Program-made: the position numbers and the translations under genes | In this document: positions 3,982-59,100 of the stretch, one piece after another | Layout: each line of letters opens with the position of its first letter | How positions within the stretch are numbered: the stretch's first letter is position 1 | The notes under the pieces: model-generated | The model's input: the letters and a program-made list of their open reading frames with translations, nothing else | Database searches by the model: none | Told to the model about the DNA's origin: nothing | Assembly (NCBI GenBank): GCA_964016885.1 | Contig: OZ024758.1 | Location: 26,474,001 to 26,538,000, forward strand | Origin: Eledone cirrhosa | Lineage: Eukaryota | DNA: 64,000 bases | Direction: 5' to 3'

Positions 3982-4057
3982 ATCCCACCATAACCAATCA
4001 GTTATACATGTTTATAACTGATTTAGAGCACTCAACAGACTGGAGTAAAAATTCAAT

Positions 4058-4400
4058 GATATTAAATAAATGGAAACTATAGTTATAAAACCATATTTAT
4101 TTTATTATATATATTTCAAGGGTACCAAAAGACTTTGGTATGCTTTCTTCAGATAAAATACAAAATTTGTTTTATAAATAGAGACATACCCAGGAAAGTC
4201 ATACCTTATCAGTTGGATATTCTCTGAATATCTCTCCAGAGAATATCCAACTGATAAGGTATGATTTTCTTGGGTATGTCTCTATTTATAAAACAAATTT
4301 TGTATTTTATCTCAAGAAAGCGTACCAAAGTCCTTGAAGTATATATAATAAAATAAATATGGTTTTATAAATATAGTTTCCATTTATTTAATATCATTAT
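4058..4400. repeat. Fold-back inverted repeat (~170-bp arms)
   Basis: Arms centred near 4231 (..GGATATTCTCTG / CAGAGAATATCC..), with a few substitutions and a small deletion in the right arm. Confidence 0.9.
4098..4160 (-). ncRNA. Minimal type I hammerhead ribozyme motif
   Basis: tattttat-CTGAAGA-aagcataccaaagtcttttggtaccctt-GAAA-tatata-TA-ataaaata, with a perfect 8-bp stem I. Confidence 0.75.
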
Positions 4401-4918: not shown

Positions 4919-4950
<32 letters not shown>

Positions 4951-4951
<1 letters not shown>

Positions 4952-5145
4952 ACAAAGGAAAAGTGGTAAGGAACCAGGTGGACCATAACGCACCAAAGTA
5001 CTCAATACTTAGGGTAGTAGAGTGGGTAATAGGAACGAGTAGGACCCCGACGGCTGAGCTCAAGCCGTTTCGACGGCTAATTCTGAATTAATTCAGAATT
5101 AGCCGTCGAAACGGTTTGAGCTCAGCCGCCGGAGTCCTACTCGTT

Positions 5146-5150
<5 letters not shown>
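4951..5150. mobile_element. Short interspersed TA-flanked repeat with terminal fold-back (further copies 9480-9620, 10358-10515, 10530-10647, 14030-14183, 15026-15120)
   Basis: Shared GTGGTAAGGAACCAG.TGGACCATAACGCACCA.AGTACTCAATA..GACCCCGACGGC.GAGCTCAAGCCGTTTCGACGGCTA. Palindromic end at 5032-5148. Probably PLE-tail derived. Confidence 0.65.
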
Positions 5151-9313: not shown

Positions 9314-9620
9314 TAATATAGATCAGTTTTATAAATAAATATTGACATACCCTTAAAAAATGCAACCATTACTGTTGGAAGCTCCCGGATAGTGGAGTTG
9401 TTTACTTATATTATTATTAGTAGTGGATATTTTTATTTTTTAAATAAGCCGTTGGGTTAGATATATATATATATATAATCAGTCAGGACCCCGACGGCTG
9501 AGCTCTTGCCGTTTCAACAGCTAAGTTCCTGATTCATTCTTATAACCATACTCTACTACTCCAAGTATTGAGTACTCTGGTAAACCTACAGTAACTGGAC
9601 GTTACAATTCTTCTCTATCG

Positions 9621-9664
<44 letters not shown>

Positions 9665-9756
9665 CAAAGATTAGTATGGTTCGTTGATTATTCAACGAAT
9701 ACAGTTTTACAATAGATTAGAAGCACTCGACAGTAAAAGTTTTCCTGGAGTTTTTA

Positions 9757-10045
9757 ATATTATTCGAAATGTTAACAAATGAAAAATATTCGCATAATCA
9801 AAATATATACTTTATTATATATATTTCAAAGGTAGTGTGTTGTTTTTTCAGTACGTCCTCATCAGACAAAATACTGTACGTCCTCATCACACTGCCAATA
9901 CTGGAATTGTATAATCAAGATCGTAGCGGTATGTCGTATATCAAATCATATATTTTGTCTGATGAGGACCTACTGAAAAAACAACACAGTACCTTTGAAA
10001 TATATATTTTGATTATGCGAATATTTTTCATTTGTTAACATTTCG

Positions 10046-10050: not shown

Positions 10051-10113
<63 letters not shown>

Positions 10114-10229: not shown

Positions 10230-10711
10230 CAATATAAACAGTCTTATAAATAGATAGATTTGACATACCTTTCAACTTCAACTTCCATTTAAAAAGTTGA
10301 TTTGGTAGTGAAAAAATATATATTCCTCCGTTTTATATATATATATATATATATATATAACGAAGGAATTGTGGTAAGGAACCAGATGGACCATAACGCA
10401 CCAGAGTACTCAATAATTAGGGTAGTAATAGGAAAAAGAATGACCCCGACGGCTATTTCCAGAAATAGCCGTCGAAACGGCTTGAGCTCTGCCGTCGGGG
10501 TCATACTTTTTCCTATATATATATATATAACAAAGAAAGTGTGGTAAGAAACTAGGTTGACCATAACGCACCAGTGTACTCGATACGTTCGGATCTAGCT
10601 GTCGAAACGACCGGAGCTCAGCCGTCGGGGTCCTGATTCTTTTCCTATATATATATATATATATATATACAATATTAAATAAATGGAAAACTATATTTAT
10701 AAAACCATATT

Positions 10712-10777
10712 TATTTCATTATATATATTTCGGGGATATCATATTAACAATATGCTATGCCTTCATCAGACAAAATA
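10712..10777 (-). ncRNA. Minimal type I hammerhead motif, left arm of perfect fold-back
   Basis: Exact reverse complement of 10933-10998. Confidence 0.72.
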
Positions 10778-10932
10778 CAATATAAACAGTTTTATAGATA
10801 AATATATTCGACATACCGTAATAAACATCAACTTCATTTGAAGAGGTTTACTGCTAGCGTAAACCTCTTCAAATGAAGTTGATGTTTATTACGGTATGTC
10901 GAATATATTTATCTATAAAACTGTTTATATTG

Positions 10933-10998
10933 TATTTTGTCTGATGAAGGCATAGCATATTGTTAATATGATATCCCCGAAATATATATAATGAAATA
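10933..10998 (+). ncRNA. Minimal type I hammerhead motif, right arm of perfect fold-back
   Basis: tattttgt-CTGATGA-aggcatagcatatt..aatatgatatcccc-GAAA-tatata-TA-atgaaata. Confidence 0.72.
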
Positions 10999-11126
10999 AA
11001 TATGGTTTTATAAATATAGTTTTCCATTTATTTAATATTGTAAATATACTCCAAATATTTGTCGAGTGCTTTTATATCAGTTATAAATATTTACTAGTTG
11101 TAACCCAACAATTTTAAATATAACTT

Positions 11127-11169
<43 letters not shown>

Positions 11170-14012: not shown

Positions 14013-14985
14013 GAGAGAGAGAGAGTGAGATTTCTGGACGCGGCGTCCAGAAATAGCCGTCAAAAAAGCTTGAGCTCTGCCGTCGGGGTCATACTTTTTC
14101 CTATTACCCACTCTACTACCCTAAGTATTGAGTACTCTGGTGCGTTATGGTCCATTTGGTTCCTTACCACAATTCCTTCGTTATATATATATATATGAGT
14201 CGAGCAACCAAATCACCCCCTACTGTCTTAAATAAGGAAATGACAGTAAATAATTGTTTCTACTTAAGGCACAAGGCCAGCAATTTATTCAGTGCATTAC
14301 TGGTACTTTGCCTTTCATCCTTACGGGGTCGATAAAATAAAGTTAACCACGGAGGGATTTGAACTCAGAATGACATTAGATAATGTAGTCGTAGACATGT
14401 CCCTAAAAGTGTTGATGGTCATGGTTGGAATGCCTTTAACCATAGTTAAGTTTAATTAGTGTTGACCTAGGAGAGATAAACAACAGTGTGATAGAGATAG
14501 AAGATATGTGTAATTATTTATGGGTTTTGCTCCCTGAAACCGGAAAAATCATTTGCGTGTGGCGTGGATAATTTCATGTTTTAAGTATAGAATATATATA
14601 TATGTATATATGTATATATGTATATATGTATATATTGCCAAAGACGAAATATTCACTTCCACCAACGGAGAATCGAAACCGAGTCGTAGATTTTAAATAC
14701 CTACACCACTGCATTGCATCTATACCTAAGAGAGCACATACATATTTGTGTTTATGAAACAAAACAAGTAAGCCAGATATTGTAGACACACGCTGGCATT
14801 CTAAATTATAACTCTAAAGTTCTCTGAAATAGTTCCCCCCCATAACATATAAGATACAGCAGGGATAGAGGTTTTTAATGATATAAGGACGAGCAATTTT
14901 GTCACGTATACCTTGTATTATATAAAAATACTATCGTTATATATTTTTCTAGGCACCGCCACACACAGTGCTCTCTGTACAGAAG

Positions 14986-15028
<43 letters not shown>

Positions 15029-15149
15029 AACAAGTATGACTCCGACGGCAGAGCTCAAGCCGTATTGAGTACTTTGGTGCGTTATGGTCCATCTGGTTCT
15101 TTACCACATTTCCTTCGTTATATATATATATAACGGAATATATTAGGGA

Positions 15150-15437: not shown

Positions 15438-15499
15438 TTTTATAGCTCTGATGAATCTTACGGTTACACGTAAGGAAGAAACATTGTTAGCCAATAAAA
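15438..15499 (+). ncRNA. Type I hammerhead motif
   Basis: ttttatagct-CTGATGA-atcttacg gttaca cgtaaggaa-GAAA-cattg-TT-agccaataaaa. Confidence 0.55.
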
Positions 15500-15637
15500 C
15501 TCTTTTGATGTTGTAGACGCTCTTGTGTTCTTTTTCATATATACGGCTCTGCTCCAAAGCATAGAGCTAATTATTATGCTGCCAATACCTTAACGGGACA
15601 CGGGTATATAATACCTAACTCCTACTAACCTAAGTAC

Positions 15638-18391: not shown

Positions 18392-18796
18392 TATATAGAA
18401 ATTACATGAATCAAAGTTCTGTTCAAACCATTTATTAGCTTACAATTGTTTCGTCCAAACCGAGGTTTGGAGTCTTCGGAGCAATTTTTCAATGATTGTT
18501 TACATACATGACCTCCTTTCCAACACAAGAGACATACAGAAACATATGTATATATCGATGCACAGTGGGTTGACATCCATTATAATAATACAGCATGGCG
18601 TATTTTAATGGATGTCAACCCACTGTGCATCGATATATACATGTGTTTCTGTATGTCTCTTGTGTTGGAAAGGAGGTCATGTATGTAAACAATCATTGAA
18701 AAATTGCTCCGAAGACTCCAAACCTCGGTTTGGAAGAAACAATTGTAAGCAAATAAATGGTTTGAACAGAACTTTGATTCATGTAATTTCTATATA
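18392..18796. repeat. Fold-back inverted repeat (~190-bp arms, 23-nt spacer)
   Basis: Arms 18392-18582 and 18606-18796, with about 3 mismatches. Confidence 0.93.
18704..18752 (+). ncRNA. Hammerhead-like motif with variant core CCGAAGA (inverted partner at 18436-18484)
   Basis: ttgct-CCGAAGA-ctccaaacc tc ggtttggaa-GAAA-caattg-TA-agcaa, with palindromic stem III ACAATTGT. Confidence 0.55.
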
Positions 18797-18951
18797 ACTG
18801 CTCTGTAGAGCAACTGATGTTATTACATTGAGCTATTTATCTTACTGGTAATAAGGTAGTAATAAATTACTGTCTTTCACTGTTTAGGGTTTAAAATATA
18901 TATAACTATAAAAGGTTTTAGTATATACATAACCATAAATAGTATCCTTAA

Positions 18952-19026
<75 letters not shown>

Positions 19027-19181
19027 TGAGAGAGAGAGAGGTAAAAGCTCATGACTTTTTACCTTCCTCTATACCCACTCTGCTTCTTCTTGTGCATAGA
19101 GTACTCCCTTGATTTGTGATCTCTCCAGTCTCAGCACTGCAGTCTCTCTCTCTCTCTTTTTCTCTCTCTCTCTCTATACAT

Positions 19182-19510
19182 GGAGGCACATGGCTTAGTG
19201 GTTAGAGCATTGGCCTTGCAATCGAAAGGTTGTGAGTTCAATTCTCAGACCGGGTGATGTGTTGTGTCCTTGAGCAAGACACTTTATTTCACATTGCTCC
19301 AGTTTACTCAGCTGTAGAAATGAGATGATTGGACTGGGGTCCATATCATTCCACTGCAAAGTGGTCGTGGAGGTGCCACGGCAAAAAAGCACCCAGCACT
19401 CACTGTAAATGAGGTTGGTGTTAGGAAGGGCATCCAGCTGTAGAAATCAAGCCAGAATCAGTTCCCGTCCCACCCTTGCCAGCAGGGAAAAGCGGACGTA
19501 AAATGAAATG
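19182..19510 (+). mobile_element. SINE family A copy
   Basis: Full copy. The central CCTTGAGCAAGACACTT..CAGTTTACTCAGCTGTAGAAATGAG resembles the MIR/CORE domain. Confidence 0.9.
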
Positions 19511-21335: not shown

Positions 21336-22212
21336 AAACGTGGTAGGTGTTAGGAAGAGCATCCAGCTGTAGAAACCAAGCCCAAAACAACCCATCTAAC
21401 TCATGCTAGAGTGAAAAGTGGACATTAAACAACGATGATGATGATGAGTCAATTCCAATCAATGGTAAAACTAGGCCATGGTTTTCATTTGCAAAGTTCA
21501 CCACAAAAAAGAAAAGACAACAAAAAGCATTGTTCCCATAATTATGTTTTCTTACAATGGCATTAGACCAAAACATTGTCGAGGGAAGAGTAGAGTTCAT
21601 TTGATTAACTGCAGGCTAACTACAAATACTAATTTTCTTCATTCAAAAGGAATAAATATGATATATAAGTTGGCCTAGATAGATTTTGAACTCAGAATAT
21701 AGCTCCCTCGCTCTGATCAATTGACAAGATCCCAGACCTCATTCACTTGCCGAGTGGGGTGGCCCTTGTCAAGACAGACCAAGGAAACAATGTTTCCATT
21801 GGTCTTTCCTTTGCTGATACCATCTACCAGTCACAACATATCACCCGGTCCAAGAATTAAACTCACAACCTCACAATTGTGAATCCAACTCTCTAACCAC
21901 TCAGCCATGCATCTTCACACTATATGGAAACAAACCTAAATACCAAAATGTATATATTTAATTTATTGACTTTACTCATCATTATCATCATCTGGTGGAT
22001 TGGCAGTATTGGTAGTGTTGGCCATGCTTTACAGCATAGAGTTATGACCCTTTGCGATCTGAGTTCAAATTCTGCCAAGGTTAGCTTTGCCTTTCATCCT
22101 TACAAGGTCGATAAAATAAAGTACCAGTAATACACTGGGATCAATTTCATCGACTTTCCCCACCCACCAAAAAAAAATTGCTGGCCTTGTGCTTATAGCG
22201 GAAACCATTGTT

Positions 22213-23999
22213 ATCATCATCACCAGTGACTGCAATAGACTGCCATCATCATCACCAGTGACTGCAATAGACTGTCATCATCATCACCAGTGACTGCAAT
22301 AGACTGCCATCATCATCACCAGTGACTGCAATAGACTGCCATCATCATCACCAGTGACTGCAATAGACTGCCATCATCATCACCAGTGACTGCAATAGAC
22401 TGTCATCATCATCACCAGTGACTGCAATAGACTGCCATCATCATCACCAGTGACTGCAATAGACTGCCATCATCATCACCAGTGACTGCAATAGACTGTC
22501 ATCATCATCACCAGTGACTGCAATAGACTGTCATCATCATCACCAGTGACTGCAATAGACCGTCATCATCATCACCAGTGACTGCAATAGACCGCCATCA
22601 TCATCACCAGTGACTGCAATAGACCGTCATCATCATCACCAGTGACTGCAATAGACTGTCATCATCATCACCAGTGACTGCAATAGACCGTCATCATCAT
22701 CACCAGTGACTGCAATAGACTGTCATCATCATCACCAGTGACTGCAATAGACTGTCATCATCATCACCAGTGACTGCAATAGACTGTCATCATCATCACC
22801 AGTGACTGCAATAGACTGCCATCATCATCACCAGTAACTGCAATAGACTGTCATCATCATCACCAGTGACTGCAATAGACTGTCATCATCATCACCAGTG
22901 ACTGCAATAGACCGCCATCATCATCACCAGTGACTGCAATAGACCGTCATCATCATCACCAGTGACTGCAATAGACCGTCATCATCATCACCAGTGACTG
23001 CAATAGACCGTCATCATCATCACCAGTGACTGCAATAGACTGCCATCATCATCACCAGTGACTGCAATAGACCGTCATCATCATCACCAGTGACTGCAAT
23101 AGACTGCCATCATCATCACCAGTGACTGCAATAGACCGCCATCATCATCACCAGTGACTGCAATAGACCGTCATCATCATCACCAGTGACTGCAATAGAC
23201 CGTCATCATCATCACCAGTGACTGCAATAGACCGTCATCATCATCACCAGTGACTGCAATAGACCGTCATCATCATCACCAGTGACTGCAATAGACCGTC
23301 ATCATCATCACCAGTGACTGCAATAGACCGTCATCATCATCACCAGTGACTGCAATAGACTGCCATCATCATCACCAGTGACTGCAATAGACTGCCATCA
23401 TCATCACCAGTAACTGCAATAGACTGTCATCATCATCACCAGTGACTGCAATAGACTGTCATCATCATCACCAGTGACTGCAATAGACTGCCATCATCAT
23501 CACCAGTGACTGCAATAGACCGTCATCATCATCACCAGTGACTGCAATAGACCGTCATCATCATCACCAGTGACTGCAATAGACCGTCATCATCATCACC
23601 AGTGACTGCAATAGACCGTCATCATCATCACCAGTAACTGCAATAGACTGTCATCATCATCACCAGTGACTGCAATAGACTGTCATCATCATCACCAGTG
23701 ACTGCAATAGACCGCCATCATCATCACCAGTGACTGCAATAGACCGCCATCATCATCACCAGTGACTGCAATAGACTGTCATCATCATCACCAGTAACTG
23801 CAATAGACTGCCATCATCATCACCAGTGACTGCAATAGACCGCCATCATCATCACCAGTGACTGCAATAGACCGCCATCATCATCACCAGTGACTGCAAT
23901 AGACTGCCATCATCATCACCAGTGACTGCAATAGACTGTCATCATCATCACCAGTGACTGCAATAGACTGTCATCATCATCACCAGTGACTGCAATAGA
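22213..23999. repeat. 32-bp minisatellite (~56 units)
   Basis: Unit CCAGTGACTGCAATAGAC(T/C)G(T/C)CATCATCATCA. Confidence 0.97.
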
Positions 24000-24385
24000 G
24001 TGGAGAGAAATGAAGCAGCCATGCTTCATTGGATGTGCAATGTAAATGTGAGAGAAATGTAGAGCTTGGATGAACTGAGGGAGAAACTGGGTTTAAGAGG
24101 ATCTGAAGTGGTGTGCATGAAAGAAGACTGTGTTGGTAGAGACATGTGATGTGCATGGATGATGACTGATGGGTGAAGAAGTGCCAGGAAATCCCAGTGG
24201 AAGGAAGCCACAGTAGAGGAAGACCAAGGAAGACCTGGGCAGAGGTGATAAGAGCTGATCTCAAATCACTGAAACTCACAGAAATGATGATGAAGGAATG
24301 CAATGAATGGAGAGATCTGTGGTGAAAAGGACCCATCCAACCCATGCAAGTGGGAAATAAATGGACATAAAAACATAGATGATGA
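23995..24385 (+). mobile_element. Degenerate RTE LINE 3' fragment
   Basis: Similar to 58716-59100 (NEAAMLHWMC.., RGRPRKTW), with a GAT tail. Confidence 0.75.
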
Positions 24386-27526: not shown

Positions 27527-27975
27527 TTAGGGAGAAGTGTTTAGACGGGGTCCGTATTTGTTAATGAAGTAAGATTCCTTGCTGATGCGCTGGGTGTGGG
27601 TGGCATTATCTTTAAATTTGTAGAGGGGAAAGATTCTGAAGTTGGGATGATTTTGGGCGGCACAGGTATCAATGTGTTCACTCAGTGGTATTTTCCTGTA
27701 TTCCCGTATTTTAATTTGGGATCTATGGACAGTCATGCGTTGGCGGAGGCTGTTTTTGGTCTGGCCTATGTATTGTTCTCGACAACCTGAACAAGTTAAT
27801 ACATATATTAGATTTTCCGATGCACATGTGAAATTGTGTTTTACTATAAAACGTTGTCCATCTTTGAAATAGAATTCTGAACCCTCTATTAGGTTGATGC
27901 AAATGCCACAGTTGGGTCTATCGCATTTTTTTACTGTGGGTTTCGTTGTTGTGGTTGGCAGTACTTTGGCATATA
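27527..27975 (-). pseudogene. Penelope-like element GIY-YIG endonuclease remnant
   Basis: [47 protein letters not shown]...LN is a GIY-YIG domain with the Cys-rich linker typical of PLEs. 5' truncated at a microsatellite. Confidence 0.88.
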
Positions 27976-33940: not shown

Positions 33941-35960
33941 ATGGCTAATTCACCTCTGCACGAAGCAGCTGAAAGCCTTTCTCACAAATTAACACCTCAC
34001 ACCGACACCACCATTGTAAATGTTACTACGTTTGCCAACACAAAAAAATATATAAGCACTAGCAATATTTTAAATTTGTCTCAGGCAGACATTCATTTCC
34101 CGCCATTACCAATGACTGCAGGTGTTAAAGCCTCCACCACCACCACCACCGCGACAACCACCACCCCACCACCACCGCGACAACCACCACCCCACCACCA
34201 CCGCGACAACAGAAACAAAAGAAGAAAAAAATAAATTAACTCGTGATGTCGAAATGAAATCAAGCAAAATGGACTCTTCCCCACCAAAGACGACTGACGT
34301 CACCACCACCACAACTGAAACTAAAATTAATATTAACGATAGCAACAACAACAATGACATTATAACCCCCCCCCCCTCAGTTTCGCCAGAGTAGCAAAAC
34401 AATTCGAAGCATTTACCGTAACTCAGGAAGATTTAGAAAATGCCAAACAAATGGTAAAGAAAGATGGGTACAGGGTCAGCCCCCCACCCCCACCCCACCC
34501 CACCTAATAAAATGGAGCATGGGCGCCTATGCACCGTGTTGTATAGAACAATAAATGTAAAATCGCGCCGAGTGGAACGGGCATCCGAGTCCCAAATCCA
34601 AAAAGCTTTGGGACATGTGTGGGCAAGAAAAACCCACATCAGACGTGGGCAAAAGTATGGAACCGTGGACGTGTTCTTTGAAACACCAGAGGAGGCTAGA
34701 GAACACTCCATGGCCCCATTAAAAAGTGACGACTTCACACTCGTCCCAAGCTATTGTGGCCAGAGACTCGTAAAGATCAGGGTGACCCACGTTCCACCGG
34801 CCATCGAAATTCCCTGGCTAATAGCGGCCGTCCTCGCCGGCATCGAAGCCAACACGAAAATAATAGCAATAGCAAAAGAAAAGCAGGAAAACTGGTCCGG
34901 ATCTGGGATGGAGCTCCTGATCCAAGCGGACCAAAAAAGCATTGAGGAGATCCCAGAGGTAATAGACCTCACTGACGGCAGCCACCTCACGGTAATTGTC
35001 GAGGGCAGAAAACCTAGGTGTGTCGTTTGTGGTGAAGGAACCCACCTAAGGGCTTTCTGCCCTCAGGCTAAAAGGTTGAGGCCACCTCTCCTACCCACCC
35101 CAGTGACACAACCATCAACACCACCAGTAGCAGAGATGGCAGCAACAACTGTAGCAGCAACAACAGAAGCAACTATAACAGCAACAACCCAGCAACAGTA
35201 GCAAAACCAACACCACCACCACCAGCAGCAAAACCAACACCACCACCACCCAACGCTTCAGAACTAGCACCAGCGCCTACACCATCCACCACGCCACAAC
35301 CAAAACTAACGGCTGTGGAGGATTTTCCACTCCCCGGCCTATCACAACTGGAGACAGATTGTGACGACGAGGAGTGGGAAACGATATCCGGAAAAAAAAA
35401 AAAAAGAAACCAAAAAAGAAAAAATTCTCTTCCTTCCCCCTCCAAAAACAAAATACAGAGGGAAACAAATAAATTAAGAAACAAAAAAGTTAGGACAGAT
35501 ATGCCACCATCCACACCAGCATCACCAACCCCATCAACCCAAACACCAACACCATCACCATCATTAACCCCAACACCACCATCACCTACACCACAAAAGT
35601 CACCAAAATGCGAAACAGAAACAAACCCACAACAAACGCAAACAAAACAAAACAACCAAAACGATACACACTACACAGCATTAAATTTGAACAACAAGCA
35701 ATTATTACACTACATCCAACACAACACCAGCATCACAGAAAAAGACTACACAACAACCCCAAAATTCACACCACCTCCACACATATAAATCACTCGCACC
35801 ACACAGAAAACGTACATGACACTAAAACAAAAATTCCCCAAAGACATCGGAGACTTCCGACAAGCACTCTCCAGGAGGATTTATAAGGACATCCTTCCTG
35901 AGGAGGCCACAAGCAGTGAAAAGGATGGAAAAACCGTCCTTCCCCTACGAGAAGTAAGGT
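33941..35960 (+). pseudogene. Frameshifted ORF1 (gag-like) of the Tx1-like LINE
   Basis: ATG at 33941. Fragments 33887-34234, 34122-34394, 34464-35201 and 35315-35788 lie in different frames. CCHC knuckle CVVCGEGTHLRAFC and Pro/Thr-rich linkers. Confidence 0.8.
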
Positions 35961-35996
35961 AAGTGGTCTTTCCCATCTTTTCCACTCCTTTTCAAC

Positions 35997-38900
35997 ATGA
36001 CCTCACTCAGAATAGGCAGCATAAATGCGCGTGGTTTGGGGTCGTCATGGAAGCAGGGCCACCTGCTCAACGACCTCAGGTCACTAAACATAGATGTAGT
36101 GGCCATCAGCGAGACCAGAATCTCCGAAGCACAGGCTTTCGCACCGATCTTCGGCGGCTACGATGTGTACGCATCTCCCAGCCGTCCGGGATCGGGGGGA
36201 GGAGTTGCTGTGCTTTTTCGGAGAGGTTTGGATCTTGCCATACTGGCCATCTTCCTGGACCCAGAAGGTAAGTTGGTGGTGCTGGACGTGACCAGCGGAG
36301 ATGGGAAAGCTTTCAGGTTAGTGGCCGTCTATGCCCCGACAGGAGCAGGGCGGCCTGATTTCTTCCGGCGTCTGGAGACCTTTCTTGGAACGTCCCGCTC
36401 TTTAGTGTTAGTGGGCGACTGGAACGGGATCTTAGATGCACGCTGGGATTGTGTGGGATTAGTGGATAAGGAAGGAGGGTGCAAGAGTCTCACCAACCTG
36501 CTCAGACGTTTTGAACTGTCTGACAGGTACCGAATGGATTTCCCGAATGTACCAATGTGGACTTGGACAAATCGCATAGGGTCATCCAGATCATATCTAG
36601 ATAGAGTATTTTGTAGGGAAATAGATAGGTCTAGCATAGGCTGTCCACAATTCAAGATAGTCAGCTACACGGACCACAAATTCGTGATCTGTGTGCTTGA
36701 CTTAGATAGGCTTCATAGACAAGGACCCGGCTACTGGAAGCTAAACGCGTCCTTACCAGCGCGCAAGGCCTACAGAGACCGGATTAGCGAACTAGTTAAG
36801 CGGGCGTTGACGGGGGCCATCGTCAACAAGTGGTGGTTTGCTCTGAAAAGAGCAATTAGAATAGAGTCCATTAGGTTTAGTAAGACTTTAGCAATAGAGA
36901 AAAATAGAGCAAAGGGAGAAATAGTTAGAAAATTAGATGAGGCGCTTAGCAAAGGCATCGCGACCGACGTACTTGCGGCGAAATTGGCCCTTGACCAATT
37001 CTTCAATGCAAAGCACGAAGGCTGCGTTGTCAGAGCTAGGGTGCGTGCTCTCAGACACGAGGGGACGAAAGCCGTTCAATGGGCCCGAGTGGCGGAGGCG
37101 CGTCGTGGCAACAAAGCCACGATCCGGTCTTTGGTGGACCACGACGGGCGCATGCTACTCGATCCCGGGCAAATGTGTGAAGCTTTTCAGCGACGCTTCG
37201 CTCAACTGTTCGGGGGCAGTGGCGGGCCGGATCGAGGGATGGACTTTAGTGTCTACCTCGACGGACTGCCGCGGCTTTCGGCCACTGAGGCGGAGTGTTG
37301 CGAAAAGCCGATAACAACCGCTGAAGTACGGGATGCAATGACTAGTTGCACAAGGGGTAAATCGCCTGGTTTGGATGGTCTGCCCTATGAACTTTACGTA
37401 CAAATGCCAAACTTGTTCGGAGGCCTCTTGGCGGACGTCTACTGCAACTGGCAACAGAACGGGAGAATTCCCAGCTCTGTGAGCCGAGGAGCGGTGGCGC
37501 TGCTGAGAAAGGATCCGAACAAGGGGGATAACATAGATAATTTTAGGCCCATAACTCTGCTAAACACAGAGTTCAAGATTTTGGCCAAGGTGCTAGCAAA
37601 GAGGTTGGCGCTTGTCGTTGGTGGTCTGGTGGGAGAGGCACAGACATGCGCCATTCCCGACAGATCCATCCACGACAACCTCCACCTCATGCGATACATC
37701 GTAGAGAGGGTAGCTAGGGAACCTGGCACGGGTGGGTCTTTGATCAATTTAGATCAGTCGAAAGCCTTCGATAGGGTCGACCATCGTTACCTAGCGGCAG
37801 TCCTGAGGGCGGCTGGCTTTGGGCTCGTCTTCAGAGGCTGGATCGCTGCCATGCACAGCGACATCTGCTCTGTAGTGAGAGTGAACGGTCACCTTTCGGA
37901 ACCGTTCAACATCATGCGCTCGGTCCGCCAAGGATGTCCCCTCTCGTCCCTGTTGTACGTATTGACTCTCGAGCCATTACTGCACAAACTGGAGACGTTG
38001 AGGGGGGTCCCGCGCGAACTAGGATGCGGAAGATCCGTGTCAGCATATGCCGACGATGTCACCGTAGTGGTGTCAAACGCCAAACACATCGAGGCGATCG
38101 GCACTACACTAAGAGAATACGAAGCGGTGACAGGAGCAATGATCAACCAGGAAAAGTCAGTGGGCCTGCAGCTCGGCACCTGGAGAGGCAGGTCCATGCC
38201 GTCCAACAGCGTCGTCGGGCGCTGGACGGACGGACCGGTTAAATTGCTAGGGGTCTGGTTCGGTCCAGACCTCCAGACGGACAAAAACTGGGACGAGGTG
38301 ACGAGCAGGGTGGCTTCCCTCACCCAGAAATGGGCCGAGAGGAAGCTATCCCTGAAAGGTCGAGCGGAGGTGGCGAATGCGTACATCGCATCCGTCATCT
38401 ACTACCGCCTGACCGTCGTACCTTGTCCTAAGCCCCGCCTGACTGCGCTGGAGCGTTTGCTCTTTTGCTTCTTGTGGAAGGGACGCGCTCCGATGGTCAG
38501 GCGGTCCATCTGCTGTCAACACCCGCTACGTGGAGGGCTGGGCATGCCGTGGCTGATGATGCGCAGACACGCGCTCAGGCTACGACATCTCCACCTCTTC
38601 CTCGACGGTGATCAGGTGTGGTCGCCGTTTGCGAGACACGTTTTTCCCCAGCTCGTCTCCTTGACGGAGCTGCAGTCCTGGGTCAAGCGAAGACCGAGAG
38701 GGAGCGCTTGGAGACTGGAATGTCTTCAGGCGCTCACAGCCCTCGACCAATCGGACAATGTGATCGGTGGAAACTCCACCTTGGCGTTCTATAGGGGATT
38801 AGTGTAGGGGAAGAGCGACGACGTACTTGGAGAAACTCTAGGCGTCGACGAAAATCAACTAGCCAATCTCTTCGGAAGGACTTTCGGGCCGGGGCCTATG

Positions 38901-42834: not shown

Positions 42835-43167
42835 ATCATTTCATTTTACGTCCACTTTTCCCTGCTTGCAAGGGTGGGACGGGAACTGATTCTGGCTTGA
42901 TTTCTACAGCTGGATGCCCTTCCTAACACCAACCTCATTTACAGTGAGTGCTGGGTGCTTTTTTTGCCGTGGCACCTCCACGACCACTTTGCAGTGGAAT
43001 GATATGGACTCCAGTGCCTATCATCTCATTTCTACAGCTGAGTAAACTGGAGCAATGTGAAATAAAGTGTCTTGCTCAAGGAAACAACACATCACCCGGT
43101 CTGAGAATTGAACTCACAACCTTTCGATTGCAAACCCAATGCTCTAACCACTAAGCCATGTGCCTCC
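42835..43167 (-). mobile_element. SINE family A copy
   Basis: Full copy. Confidence 0.9.
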
Positions 43168-43283
43168 ATATATATATATATATTTTTTGAGTATATGTTG
43201 GTTGTATACCAACACCTCAGATTGCAGATTGGAGCACTCGACGAAGTGCGCAGGTTGGTTTGGTTACTCCGGAGTAATGTAAA

Positions 43284-43570
43284 ATAAACTAAAATAAATA
43301 AGTCAAATGTTTAAAATTTGACTTCGTTTATATATTTCGGTGCTATATATATTTCGGTGACAGCCATCTTTGGCTGTGACCTCTTCAGGAACTGGGCATA
43401 TCAGAGTATTGACAAAGTTAAACACCTCAACAACATGTGTAATCGTCTCTACCACACTAATTCGGACTGCCTGAAGAGGTCACAGCCAAAGATGGCTGTC
43501 ACCGAAATATATATAGCAGTAATAAACGAAGCCAAATTTTAAACATTTAACTTATTTATTTTAGTTTATT
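43284..43570. repeat. Fold-back inverted repeat (~100-bp arms, ~80-bp spacer)
   Basis: ATAAACTAAAATAAATAAG..CTCTTCAGG is mirrored at 43470-43570. Confidence 0.88.
43466..43520 (+). ncRNA. Minimal type I hammerhead motif (inverted partner core at 43344-43388)
   Basis: actgc-CTGAAGA-ggtcacagcca aaga tggctgtcacc-GAAA-tatata-TA-gcagt. Confidence 0.8.
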
Positions 43571-44522: not shown

Positions 44523-45600
44523 ATATATATATATATATATAATACAAAATTTAGTACAGCATCAACGAAGCCATGGTTGCAGCCAAGCTAACGAATGCAG
44601 TTTCGGTGTGCAGCTAAGCACTCAATAGGGTATAACCCTAGAGTTATAACATTACGTTTAGACAGCTTTGCAAAATGAAGACAGCGACCGATAGAAGGGC
44701 CACAGTGACCATAGCCACGAAAAAGACTGAACTCAGGAAAAATTTGACTAACCTGGACCATCACGTCGACATCATACATAACACATAATACATTTAATAT
44801 AATATATACCATATAATATACATCACATGTAATCCACAATATCTCCACTAGGTTTCTGTAAATCCGAAATCAACAAAATCCACTTGCAAGGGTGTGCAAG
44901 TTAATGGTTTTTGAAGATAGAACAATGGAGTTTTACTTCGTCAACAAGTTTTTCGTTCTGGTCTGCTCGGGTTTTTTATGCTAGAGTAAGCGCTGCTAGC
45001 AAACACATGGTTTTCCCAAAAGGAAGTAACACCCAATTTTGGCGGTCAATTCAAAATTTAGAACAAAGAGAAATAATAATTGTTTCTACTTTTGGCACAA
45101 GGCCAGCAATTCACCAGTACATTACTGGTACCTTATTTTATCGACCCTGTAAGGATGAAAAGTAAAGTTGACCTCGGCGGGATTTGAACTCAGAATGGCA
45201 AGGGCCGTAACTCTATACGTCAAAGCATGGCGTCTTACCCCCTACCGATACTGCCAATCCACCGCCCTATATTAAATATTCTAACTCAATATTAAATAAT
45301 ATACCCAATTTCTATATTCTAGACCTCTAATATTTGTAATATTAGTACATACACCTCAATTTATTTATTTTTTTTTTTTAGGCTTTATTTACAGCTGTTT
45401 TTCATTTTTGACAGCATTCCTGATCAAAAGTCTCTTTCTCTTTCCGCCTTTCTTTCTTTTTTCCTCTCTCCTCTCTTCTATTTCTTTTTCCTTTCCTTTT
45501 CTTCATTTTTCCTATTTTTCTCTTCTCTTATATTTTTGTCATATGTAGACTGGACACTTTTTTGTTCACAAGTGTTTTTAGGCCTCATATCATGTTACCT

Positions 45601-45670
45601 TATTTTATCTGATGAGAAGACAATTTTTGTCCCAGGATGATGTTGTTTTCGAAATGCGCATAATAAAATA
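45601..45670 (+). ncRNA. Minimal type I hammerhead motif
   Basis: tattttat-CTGATGA-gaagacaat...gttgttttc-GAAA-tgcgca-TA-ataaaata. Perfect stem I, 9-bp stem II, palindromic stem III ATGCGCAT. Confidence 0.8.
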
Positions 45671-45865
45671 TATGGAACTTTTTTAACCATCTTTTAATTT
45701 CTTCTTTATATATACTCCAGTTCTACCAACTGTTGAGTGCTACTTATCTGATATATGCATAGTTTTATTGTTCTGCAATATTACTCATTTCCTACATATA
45801 TATATATATATATAAGCAAAGGGATATTTAATTTGTAAGTTTTGGTACCCTTGAAATATATATAA

Positions 45866-49529
<3,664 letters not shown>

Positions 49530-49588: not shown

Positions 49589-50877
49589 CGAGGAAGGATC
49601 AAAAAGTTCGCGGAATTTTATCGTAGCAAGAAAAAAATCAGGTTAAAACAATATTAAACATGTCAGAACGTTGTCACTGGGTGTTTACCTTGCTATTAGT
49701 CACATGCAGTCAGTCATGCGCGGACTATTGTACAGTACTGACACTCTTGAAAAAACCTCTTTTTGGAGCAATGGAAAATAGTTATTTTGAGATAAGATCG
49801 AATATCAAGTTTCTGGTGAAACTCAAATGGAAAGGAACACAGATTATGGAGGCTTTAGTTAAAGTTTACAGTACTACTGCTCCAAAGAAAACTGCTGTCT
49901 ACAAATGGATTCAGTGATTCAAACAAGGGAAAGACGACCTTGAAGACGACCATCGCAGTGGAAGACCAGGAACATCAAACAATGACCAAAACGTTGAGGC
50001 TGCTCAGACTTTAATTGAAGAAGATCGAAGAATAACAGTTAATCAGTTAGCTAAGTCCCTAGACATTTCATATGGTTCGGCAAATTCAATTCTGCACGAT
50101 AATTTGGGACTAAGCAAGCTTTCAGCGCGATGGGTCCCAAAAGCGTTGCGCTCTGATCAGCTGATTCTTCCAAGTGATCTGTCTTTGGCGATATTAAACA
50201 AAATTGAAGTTGATGAAGAGCATTTCCTGACCAGAATCATCACCGGAGATGAAACCTGGATCTACCAGTATAATCCTGAATCCAAACAGCAGTCAAAACA
50301 GTGGCTTCCACATGGATCATCGGGGCCAATCAAGTTCAAATTAAGAAGTGATGGCCACCATTTTCTGGGATTCAGATGGGGTGATACTAATAGATTATCT
50401 TGAAGGTCAAAGAACTGTGACAGGAGCTTACTATGCAAAGGTTTTAGGGAAGCTGAAAGAGGCATTAGTCAAGAAATGAAAAGGGAAACTTCATGGTGGG
50501 ATCTTGTTTGACAATGCACCAGCACATTCTGCGTGGGTTGCAAAAGAAGTTCTTCGAGAATTTCGATGGGAAGTGCTTCCTCACCCGCCTTATAGTCCAG
50601 ATTTAGCCCCATCAGACTTTTTCCTCTTTCCAAAACAAAAAGAAATGCTAAAAGGAACCCGTTTTAGTGGTGTTGAAGAAGCTAAAAACACTGCCAACAC
50701 ATAGCTTCGAACAAGGCCTTCAACTTTCTTTAGAGACGGCTTACGAAGCTGGAAGCATCGCCTTGTCAAGTGGATTGACCTGGATGGCAACTATGTAGAA
50801 AAATAAATCGAAGGTAAATCATATTTTTTGAAAAATAGATTATTTTCTTTAAAATTCTGCGAACTTTTTGATCCCCC

Positions 50878-50932: not shown

Positions 50933-51159
50933 TTGATATAGTAGAATAATCGAGAATCGGAAAAACAGCTCACGAATTAACGATAAACAGTATCCGATAT
51001 GTGTGGCAGAGGGCTCAATAATTTGGATAAATCAGAGCTATAACCATCGTTAAATTACCAACACATAGAGATCATGCCTAAAATCACCCGTGCATCCGAA
51101 AAAGAACGACCAGGAAGATTCGGGTCACTCAAATAAAATATCAATAAATCAATAAATTG

Positions 51160-57196: not shown

Positions 57197-57304
57197 CTAG
57201 AAAATTATATAAACACATTTTTTGTCAATATATATCGGGTTTTAATTCAAATATATATATATTTAAATAACAACACAAGCACTTTAAGCCTTTAGCATTT
57301 ACAT

Positions 57305-59100
57305 CACGAATGATCAGAAAAAGGAGGCCTGGAAATGTCATAATGAGAGACTGATGAATGTGGAGAATGAATGGGAGAGAGAGAAATTACCCTCAGTAGA
57401 TCTGACAGAGGGACCAGCTATTGAGATTGACGAATATAGGGTCCAAGAGGCGATTAAGGAAATGAAAAATGGTAAGGCTGCTGGACCATCGGGAATAGTT
57501 GCTGAGATGCTGAAGGCATCAGGGGACGTAGGCACTAAACTGGCTGCACGCATCATCAATCAGGCTATATATGGTGGTGTCATACCCAAAGACTGGTGCA
57601 GCAGTATTCTCATAAATTGCTACAAAGGTAAAGGGGATGCTCTGGATAGGAGCAATTATAGGGGTATAAAACTGATAGATCAGGTTATGAAAGTGGCAGA
57701 AAGGATATTAGCACAACTAATTAGAGAAAGGGTCAAACTAGATGAGATGCAGTTTGGTTTTGTGCCTGGGAAGAGTACAACAGATGCCCTCTTCTTGGTG
57801 AGACAATTGCAAGAGAGGTTCTTAGAGAAAAATAAGCCACTATACTTAGCCTTTGTTGACCTAGAGAAGGTCTTTGATAGGGTACCTCGATCTGTCATCT
57901 GGTGGTCCCTAAGGAAACTAGGTGTTGAGGAATGGCTTGTGAGGACAGTGCAAACTTTGTACAGAGGTACTGTCAGTAAAGTCAGGGTAGGAATGGAGTT
58001 TAGTGAGGAATTCCAGATACAAGTAGGAGTACATCAAGGTTCGGTCCTCAGCCCGCTCTTGCTCATTATAGTCCTCCAAGCCATAACAGAGGAGTTTAAG
58101 ACTGGCTGTCCATGGGAACTTCTCTATGCTGACGATCTGGTTCTTATAGCAGAATCAGTAGAGGAGCTAGAAAATAAATTCTGGCTATGGAAACAGCAGT
58201 TGGAAGCAAGAGGACTGAGAATGAATCTAGCTAAGACAAAAGTGTTGATGAGTAGAAAAGAGGACAAAACCCTGATTCCGTCAGGGAAATGGCCATGTTC
58301 GATATGCAGAAAAGGAACTGGCATAAATTCTATAAAATGCACACAATGCAGATCCTGGGTACACAAGAGATGTAGCGGGATAGCAGGCAAACTAACAGGT
58401 AGGGAGAAATATGTATGCAGTACAGGGAAATTAGACAGTAGAAGTCGCATTGATAGACACATTTTTCAAATGCAGGCGGGTGCTATAGAAGTGGTAGATA
58501 GCTTCCGGTACCTAGGAGATCAGATTAGCATGGGAGGGGGGGGGGGTCCGAGGCCATAGTATCGAGAATAAGGACGGGTTGGAAGAAGTTTAGGGAGCTG
58601 CTGACGAAGGGTTTCTCCCTGCGTATGAAAGGCCAGTTATATGATGCCTGCGTGAGGAGCGCGATGCTGCATGGTAGTGAGACATTTGCAGCAACTGCAG
58701 ATGATAAGCAACGGCTGGAGGGAAATGAGGCAAGCATGCTCCGTTGGATGTGCAGTGTCAATGTGCGTGAACGACCCAGCATAAATGTGTTGAGAGAGAA
58801 ACTGTGTCTGAGAGGGATAGAATGTAGTGTACGGGAGGGGAGACTGAGGTGGTATGGACATGTGAAGCGCATGGGGATGACCGATGGGTAAAGAAGTGTC
58901 AGGAAATGCCAGTTGAAGGAAGACGTGGTAGAAGTAGACCACGAAAAACATGGGCGGAGGTGGTGAGAACAGACCTCAGATCATTGAAGCTCACGGTGGA
59001 GATGATGAAGGACCGTGATGAGTGAAGAGACGCTGTGCTGAATAAGACCCGTCCCACCCTTGCGAGCAGGGAAGAGCGGGCGTAAAATGATGATGATGAT
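57305..59100 (+). mobile_element. 5'-truncated RTE-clade LINE in an MRPL18 intron (antisense to the gene)
   Basis: RT motifs GKAAGPSG, NYRGI, QFGF, FVDLEKVFDRV, GVHQGSVLSP, YADD. Cys-rich PHD-like insert CSIC..CTQC..WVHKRC. Frameshift at the poly-G near 58540. RLRWYGHV and a (GAT)n tail. Confidence 0.9.

Follow-up and report, generated by a model that had tools for sequence, protein, structure and literature searches.

A short sequence predicted to fold as a bulged RNA hairpin stands at a constant place relative to hammerhead motifs and element ends in remnants that are likely Hydra-clade Penelope-like elements (PLEs), and it is apparently a conserved, unpublished cis signal of this known retroelement clade. 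Because the hairpin occurs twice in full-length relatives and most copies end just before one of the two, it likely tells the reverse transcriptase (RT) where copying starts; we place a probability of roughly 0.6 on the reading that it is an RT docking site, with one hairpin positioning each start. The window analysed here is a 64,000-nt stretch of Eledone cirrhosa DNA (GCA_964016885.1, contig OZ024758.1, 26,474,001-26,538,000, forward strand), which is AT-rich and microsatellite-rich animal DNA; coordinates below are positions within it. The original prediction for this window was of a cis-acting 3' hairpin at a fixed position behind hammerheads. Enrichment, a fixed place and covariation agree with that description, and none of the outcomes named as refuting it arose, whereas the hairpin is not 3'-terminal: it stands at the front of the optional Penelope tail, and that tail is where the 5' UTR of the next unit begins.

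The focal insertion carries a predicted minimal type I hammerhead motif at 10933..10998(+), read by eye, in which stem I pairs 10933-10940 with 10991-10998 and the core consists of CTGATGA at 10941 and GAAA at 10979-10982, with a palindromic stem III. Minimal hammerheads of this kind have been described for Penelope-like elements in the part of PMC4209133 used here. Cleavage is predicted after 10990, 57 nt before the bulged hairpin at 11048..11070(+). In the predicted fold of the latter, the lower stem pairs 11048-11051 with 11064-11067 and the upper stem pairs 11052-11054 with 11059-11061, followed by a UC bulge (11062-11063) and a 3' GCU (11068-11070). The insertion is head to head, with one arm at 10860..11042(+) continuing into the tail and an inverted tail-less arm at 10668..10850(-) bearing the same hammerhead at 10777-10712. 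The tail-less arm enters (TA)n 5 nt before the hairpin position, at a junction that is blurred over ~8 nt, the element itself being TA-like at this point. The one-sided tail at 11043..11129(+) consists of the hairpin and 59 nt, and then gives way to (TA)n. More generally, the window copies are inserted in (TA)n and carry the tail on one arm only, with a length of 77-101 nt in the window versus 30-40 bp in the literature. An adjacent inverted, 5'-truncated partner arm is present at four of the five originally predicted sites, the exception being 45714. Non-LTR retrozymes are described in the available text of PMC7229834 as tandem monomers of ~170-400 nt with a canonical hammerhead; no such tandem arrays were seen in the window, where copies are single or inverted. 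An Rfam search of the window gave no hammerhead and no hairpin match among the matches listed at either threshold. At the gathering threshold it returned only two tRNA-like matches, elsewhere in the window, and its microRNA matches were rejected as TA-repeat noise.

The five places and strands at which the motif TACTCC..GTYGAGTGCT had been reported are correct, since GTYGAGTGCT occurs exactly five times in the whole window and always at these sites: 11061-11070(+), 45732-45741(+), 43242-43233(-), 9731-9722(-) and 4036-4027(-). This 3' half is conserved in all five copies, but the leading T is not (the 9752 copy begins AACTCC). All five motifs lie on the same strand as a CTGANGA...GAAA core, 59-76 nt behind it, and outside the hammerhead core as had been proposed. 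Measured from the last letter of GAAA to the first of ACTC, the distance is 65 nt at 11048, 59 nt at 45714, 76 nt at 43275, 72 nt at 9751 and 67 nt at 4046, the 72-nt spacing having been counted by hand and the other four by script. Besides the focal copy, the hairpins occupy 4027..4046(-), a member of the focal family with the least stable fold of the five and a hammerhead core at 4152-4114(-); 9722..9751(-), with a core starting at 9865(-); 43233..43275(-), with a long upper stem-loop and a core at 43388-43352(-); and 45714..45741(+), with a 5-bp upper stem, a core at 45609-45654(+) and no partner arm in the window. The description of these sites as otherwise unrelated families holds for the flanks of 43275 and 45714, which have no clear likeness, but the five sites represent at most four families because 4046(-) and 11048(+) belong to one (77% identity over 187 nt; spacer z 7.4). 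In addition, 9751(-) has a weak relationship to 11048 (tail z 3.7).

The motif is enriched, as the prediction entailed. A loose pattern, TACTCN{1,25}GAGT, has 18 matches in the window versus 7.6 expected, and a strict pairing-aware pattern, written post hoc after the data had been seen, has 11 matches, whereas 100 block shuffles averaged 0.06 and never exceeded 1. Eight window copies lie beyond the first five, three of them with a G-C first pair (15546, 18800 and 51038). A related sequence had been placed at about 9557 in the 4951-type family; it is present, but in another register, the pairing ACTC being at 9550-9553 rather than 9558, which puts this subfamily's hairpin at 9550..9576(+). Other 4951-type hairpins are at 4997..5023(-), which has a U-A upper pair, an ACU end and the 3' half of the hammerhead only, and at 14110..14136(+). 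The 4951-type stubs are very abundant (4950-5150, 9480-9625, 10358-10640, 14048-14183, 15024-15120); they have the 3' half of the hammerhead only, with a long palindromic stem III, and the 5' core is found in no window copy. Five copies had been overlooked. Of these, 15546..15570(+) has a G-C first pair (GCTC/GAGC) and lies behind a hammerhead core at 15448-15481(+), 18800..18836(+) also has a G-C first pair and lies behind a CCGAAGA-core hammerhead at 18709(+), and 19077..19105(+) belongs to a 5'-truncated remnant without a hammerhead. The hammerheads at 18709(+) and 18479(-) form an inverted pair in which both arms have CCGAAGA in place of CTGAAGA. The remaining two, 44617..44644(-) and 51010..51038(-), the latter of G-C type, lie 75 and 79 nt before (TA)n, respectively, with no canonical hammerhead upstream. 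These two copies, in the stretches 44617-44750(-) and 51010-51150(-), have longer tails, and both have CCTG..TCTTTTTCG ~70-90 nt upstream; they possibly represent another ribozyme or another element group with the same hairpin.

Metagenome contigs were scanned for relatives using a Hydra-nuclease peptide motif, a query without any hairpin content. This yielded 113 loci (L numbers below), most of them with a Hydra-like C terminus and about a dozen clearly unrelated, and a hammerhead-like core lies downstream in 43 of the 113. Three distinct full frames of 722-724 residues contain RWK/RWR, DKT/DKS, LYRDD and CxCX5C, and Pfam gave nothing above cut-off for these Hydra-like frames. When judged by eye against the part of the description by Craig et al. 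2021 (PMC8557442) used here, L010, L022/L080 and L037 have the marks of the Hydra clade, namely a single short ORF, a C-terminal nuclease without CCHH and a hammerhead in the UTR. The same fold lies behind the hammerhead in ORF-linked Hydra-clade elements of these contigs, with 39-53 nt between predicted cut and hairpin in the contig loci versus 51-59 nt in the script-scored window copies. Moreover, L010, L011, L022/L080, L064, L066 and L037 have twin hairpins 57-72 nt apart before the ATG, the first copy in L037 being damaged. In ORF-bearing relatives, the hammerhead is followed after 39-53 nt by end point 1 and hairpin 1, then after a further 57-72 nt by end point 2 and hairpin 2, and the ATG comes 18-40 nt later. 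The motif, which was to be looked for at the 3' tails of full-length PLEs, is present in these contig relatives twice per element, in the 5' UTR before the ATG.

Among six published Hydra consensus sequences in the accessible material, inspected by eye, the hairpin is clear in three (Hydra-2_Amil, Hydra-1_Ajap, where it occurs twice, and Hydra-2_Ajap) and imperfect in one (Hydra-1_Crog, twice); Hydra-1_Amil could not be assessed, and Hydra-1_Obim has no clear copy. The consensus sequences in which the hairpin recurs come from coral, sea cucumber and copepod, and the Hydra-1_Ajap one starts 2 nt before hairpin 1. Six 9-mers of the hairpin 3' half gave 7 matches in the supplement of PMC8557442, where line breaks may hide others; 4 are in Hydra UTRs and 3 in coding-like stretches of other files, and the hairpin did not turn up in Naiad or Chlamys in this search. 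Viral and prokaryotic sequence collections gave 0 matches. When a covariance model was built from 20 contig copies, each of G-C type, it recovered 0/5 of the originally predicted sites at E values up to 10. In these sites the first pair is A-U and the 3' end is GCU, which was seen in no ORF-linked copy here. The model finds 51046, 14102, 5031 and 15538 weakly (E 0.012-1.9), and its top window match is the copy at 51010..51038(-). Within the window, tblastn with 17 Hydra-type queries gave no Hydra ORF remnant among the matches listed (best E 0.3), and reads and contigs gave no second hairpin for the window families among the best-supported loose ends listed; as a result, both the ORF and the second hairpin are carried over from relatives.

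The predicted consensus fold is RCUC-(variable upper stem-loop)-UH-GAGY-RCU, in which a 4-bp lower stem is topped by an upper stem of at least 1-6 pairs, with a 2-nt bulge (first letter U) on the 3' side and a trinucleotide at the 3' end. ACTC and GAGT are predicted to pair round a variable loop, as had been suggested, but in a structure of two stems and a 2-nt bulge rather than a single stem. At 4/5 of the originally predicted sites the hairpin is the top structure from folding programs, its stability is not unusual (z -2.1 to 0.0 across the five), and the focal copy has predicted lower-stem pair probabilities of 0.93-0.95 and a z of -2.1. Over 31 instances, a chosen set of 11 window and 20 contig copies most of which were picked by a pattern demanding the scored pairs, the first pair is A-U in 8, G-C in 23 and mixed in 0, and the first upper pair is C-G in 14, U-A in 15 and U-G in 2. 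Because the pattern demanded pairs, the count for the first upper pair was repeated on 21 rows for which only the 3' half and an upstream hammerhead had been required, leaving out L070 (no CTC) and L012(+) (whose match at 1057 resembles a tRNA-derived repeat). The remaining 19 rows, read with the nearest fitting CTC, have C-G in 12, U-A in 6, U-G in 1 and C-A in 0 (Fisher p 0.0003, with kinship not corrected for). L029 has a mismatch at pair 1, and the lower stem is broken in L029 and L070. The third upper pair, which the pattern does not demand, is paired in 24/28 versus 11.6 by permutation. Pairs 7-9 include 10 G-U versus 1 A-C, which favours the sense strand. Raw reads of the focal family have letters differing in 5% or more only in the loop and bulge, and 4951-type reads vary at 1/16 stem positions, with a G-U pair kept, versus 25/109 outside, a difference that is not significant (p 0.19). 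Five letters on the lower-stem side are nearly invariant.

The covariation expected of a paired element across families with non-aligning flanks is found at two pairs (A-U/G-C and C-G/U-A). Plain shared ancestry, in which the motif would be a slowly changing stretch without a function of its own, draws on the kinship among the five sites, two of which belong to one family and a third of which has a weak relationship. Most family pairs, however, have flanks that do not align, and the fold is kept through double changes, twice per element, in the coral, sea cucumber and copepod sequences, all of which make this explanation highly improbable.

The ends of the element copies cluster at the hairpins. 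In 5/5 inverted pairs of the window whose tailed arm has a full hammerhead core, the tail-less partner ends 3-8 nt short of the hairpin. The offsets at four of the originally predicted sites are 8 nt (4027..4046 copy, partner ending at 4398), 5 nt (9722..9751 copy, partner ending at 10053), 5 nt (the focal copy) and 7 nt (43233..43275 copy, partner ending at 43570); the fifth is 3 nt at 18800, where the inverted partner ends at 18392. Three 4951-type arms stop 5 nt before the hairpin, the partner arm of the 4997..5023 copy ending at 5150, and 3563 raw reads have TA repeats joined at the same 4951-type junction. In the metagenome contigs, 12/18 rows stop 2-7 nt before hairpin 1, after five rows ending with the contig were left out and the L029 anchor was corrected by hand (3 nt). 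The six misses at end point 1 are L027, L076, the near-identical L015/L048/L056 and the second unit in L060. L015, L022, L029 and L040 also contain a second small hairpin-like motif, ACTC..GAGTAGT, behind the hammerhead and before end point 1, which occurs in one Hydra subgroup and is retained in tail-less copies. Tailed ends lie 4-8 nt before hairpin 2 at 4/6 informative contig ends, with offsets of 4 nt in L022, 4 nt in L012 (-16 under stricter trimming), 8 nt in L016 (only 78% like the reference) and 5 nt in L034; the two misses are L080 at -27 and L094 at -11, near a contig end. The window copies behave like Hydra ends and are likely, though not certain, to be such ends.

Many of these end points fall on short TA-like patches. 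The hairpins might then be 5' UTR protein-binding sites for packaging or translation, in which case pairing of neighbouring AU-rich patches with the (TA)n primer would set the ends, and their nearness to the hairpins would be a by-product. The patches themselves speak for this explanation, as does the position of hairpin 2 only 18-40 nt from the ATG; yet spacers and tails are AU-rich throughout, and the ends nevertheless cluster 2-8 nt from hairpins in many families. We regard it as unlikely. The motif could also work as DNA, with the endonuclease recognizing a cDNA or integration intermediate and cutting ~5 nt upstream, so that the ends would be resolution cuts. Craig et al. considered the tail most likely to be the result of endonuclease-mediated resolution (PMC8557442, in the text available), and PMC11167929 cites the D. 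virilis endonuclease as having depended on the tail for recognition; the near invariance of the five lower-stem letters points the same way. Length-variable covarying stems and the G-U bias, on the other hand, fit a folded sense strand and do not fit duplex DNA or first-strand cDNA, and according to the available part of PMC11167929 the ends of Poseidon_Ac coincide with RT start sites in vitro. On balance, cutting at the DNA level seems to us improbable. Finally, hairpins that direct RNA cleavage or termination ~5 nt upstream, followed by ordinary priming at the new RNA 3' ends, would predict the same genomic ends, and Poseidon_Ac RNA-seq reads do end on start sites. The Poseidon_Ac RT, however, began internally on uncut RNA in vitro (both observations from the accessible part of PMC11167929), and this route is quite improbable.

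If the hairpin is instead an RT docking site, as we favour, the RT-endonuclease would bind each hairpin on the sense RNA and would nick both strands of a (TA)n tract. Priming of cDNA from each DNA 3' end would then take place ~5 nt before one of the hairpins, in many cases at an AU-rich patch able to pair with the primer. A start at hairpin 1 would give the tail-less arm and a start at hairpin 2 the tailed arm, still containing hairpin 1, and the two 5'-truncated cDNAs would be joined head to head. The directing hairpin would never be copied, because the start lies ~5 nt upstream of it, and the tailed arm would retain hairpin 1 because it was started at hairpin 2. We further consider it possible, if only tentatively, that the twin hairpins together form a two-part landing site for an RT-endonuclease dimer, each subunit of which takes one hairpin, both on the same RNA, and one (TA)n strand. 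If so, one RNA would start two cDNAs at once, the Penelope tail and the head-to-head insertions would be explained together, and a portable signal of ~100 nt would cause any RNA upstream of it to be copied into TA repeats by a telomerase-related RT.

Several other readings and window features were considered. A C-terminal GIY-YIG nuclease remnant (Pfam PF01541) at 27527-27950(-), with an upstream CxxC linker and CCHH, is Neptune-like by the part of the PMC8557442 description used here because of these two features; as a parent element it was rejected, since it has CCHH and no hammerhead behind it. A long 32-bp tandem array of ~97% identity occupies 22050-24100. By eye, we take the open frame at 35958-38807(+), of 949 residues, to be of LINE endonuclease-RT type, that at 57288-58559(+) to be another RT-like frame, that at 47910-49225(-) to be Helitron-type helicase-like, and that at 49918-50403(-) to be a piece of mariner-type transposase. 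Mimicry of a tRNA D arm was considered, since GCUC..UA GAGC ACU resembles one, but was set aside because a D loop accommodates neither the A-U form nor the paired upper stem. Heads of tRNA-like repeats lie at 2614-2671, 43101-43158(-) and 19191-19248(+), their D-arm-like part resembling the hairpin 3' half, and two tailed copies run straight into a tRNA-like repeat. SECIS and kink-turn readings were set aside by eye for want of tandem G-A pairs, and a telomerase template-boundary reading was set aside with the hairpin lying 3' of the copied part.

Penelope-like elements are the closest mobile relatives of telomerase, and the hairpin may bear on how they choose their RNA and their start points. 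A covarying hairpin that stands once behind each end point offers an exact and cheap test of start choice, and, for the annotation of repeat-rich animal genomes, it can mark where elements end. Earlier work has described the tail, the inverted arm, the hammerhead and internal initiation. We found no description of the hairpin or of its twin arrangement in searches of the open literature. With the Hydra clade as treated in part of Craig et al. (PMC8557442), the elements share the type I hammerhead with short stem III, the (TA)n insertion, the inverted truncated partner and the one-sided tail, and the hairpin has no mention in that account of the clade as available. They also share head-to-head arms, an inverted pLTR and a one-arm tail with the Adineta vaga Penelope (PMC3846280), and a palindromic minimal stem III with minimal PLE hammerheads (PMC4209133); the portions of these two papers drawn on name no downstream RNA signal. 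The antisense-template idea of PMC3846280, as given there in part, is disfavoured by the G-U bias seen here.

The closest comparison is with Poseidon_Ac, for which a single in vitro study located two internal starts and, in the part available, gave no binding motif (Frangieh et al. 2024, PMC11167929). According to that text, synthesis by the RT is initiated at two internal sites, with the tail corresponding to the sequence that separates them; cutting and extension affect both target strands, and a dimer is predicted for the protein. By analogy, our two-end pattern fits two such start sites. Likewise, in both cases there is a hammerhead in the pLTR, with two downstream end points, an optional tail between them and a protein-binding region inferred in the same RNA stretch. 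That region is coding in Poseidon_Ac and the tail is 30-40 bp, whereas here it is 5' UTR and the spacing in relatives is 57-72 nt; the Poseidon_Ac start site is not homologous to the target, whereas TA-like patches here could pair with the primer (PMC11167929, in part). The binding region of Poseidon_Ac is given only as "within the first 172 nt of the ORF", with no motif defined in the text available, whereas each end point here has its own hairpin, unlike in that description (PMC11167929). A search of the supplement text of PMC11167929 for the hairpin gave no matches; figures S1-S2, which are outside that text, show a start-site stem-loop that may bear on the comparison. More distantly, the docking-site reading resembles the situation in other retroelements. 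With LINE or R2 proteins, a small 3' RNA stem-loop recruits the RT and fixes the start of priming. Those stem-loops lie upstream of the start and are copied, whereas the hairpin described here, which is present in two copies, would be situated downstream of the start and escape copying.
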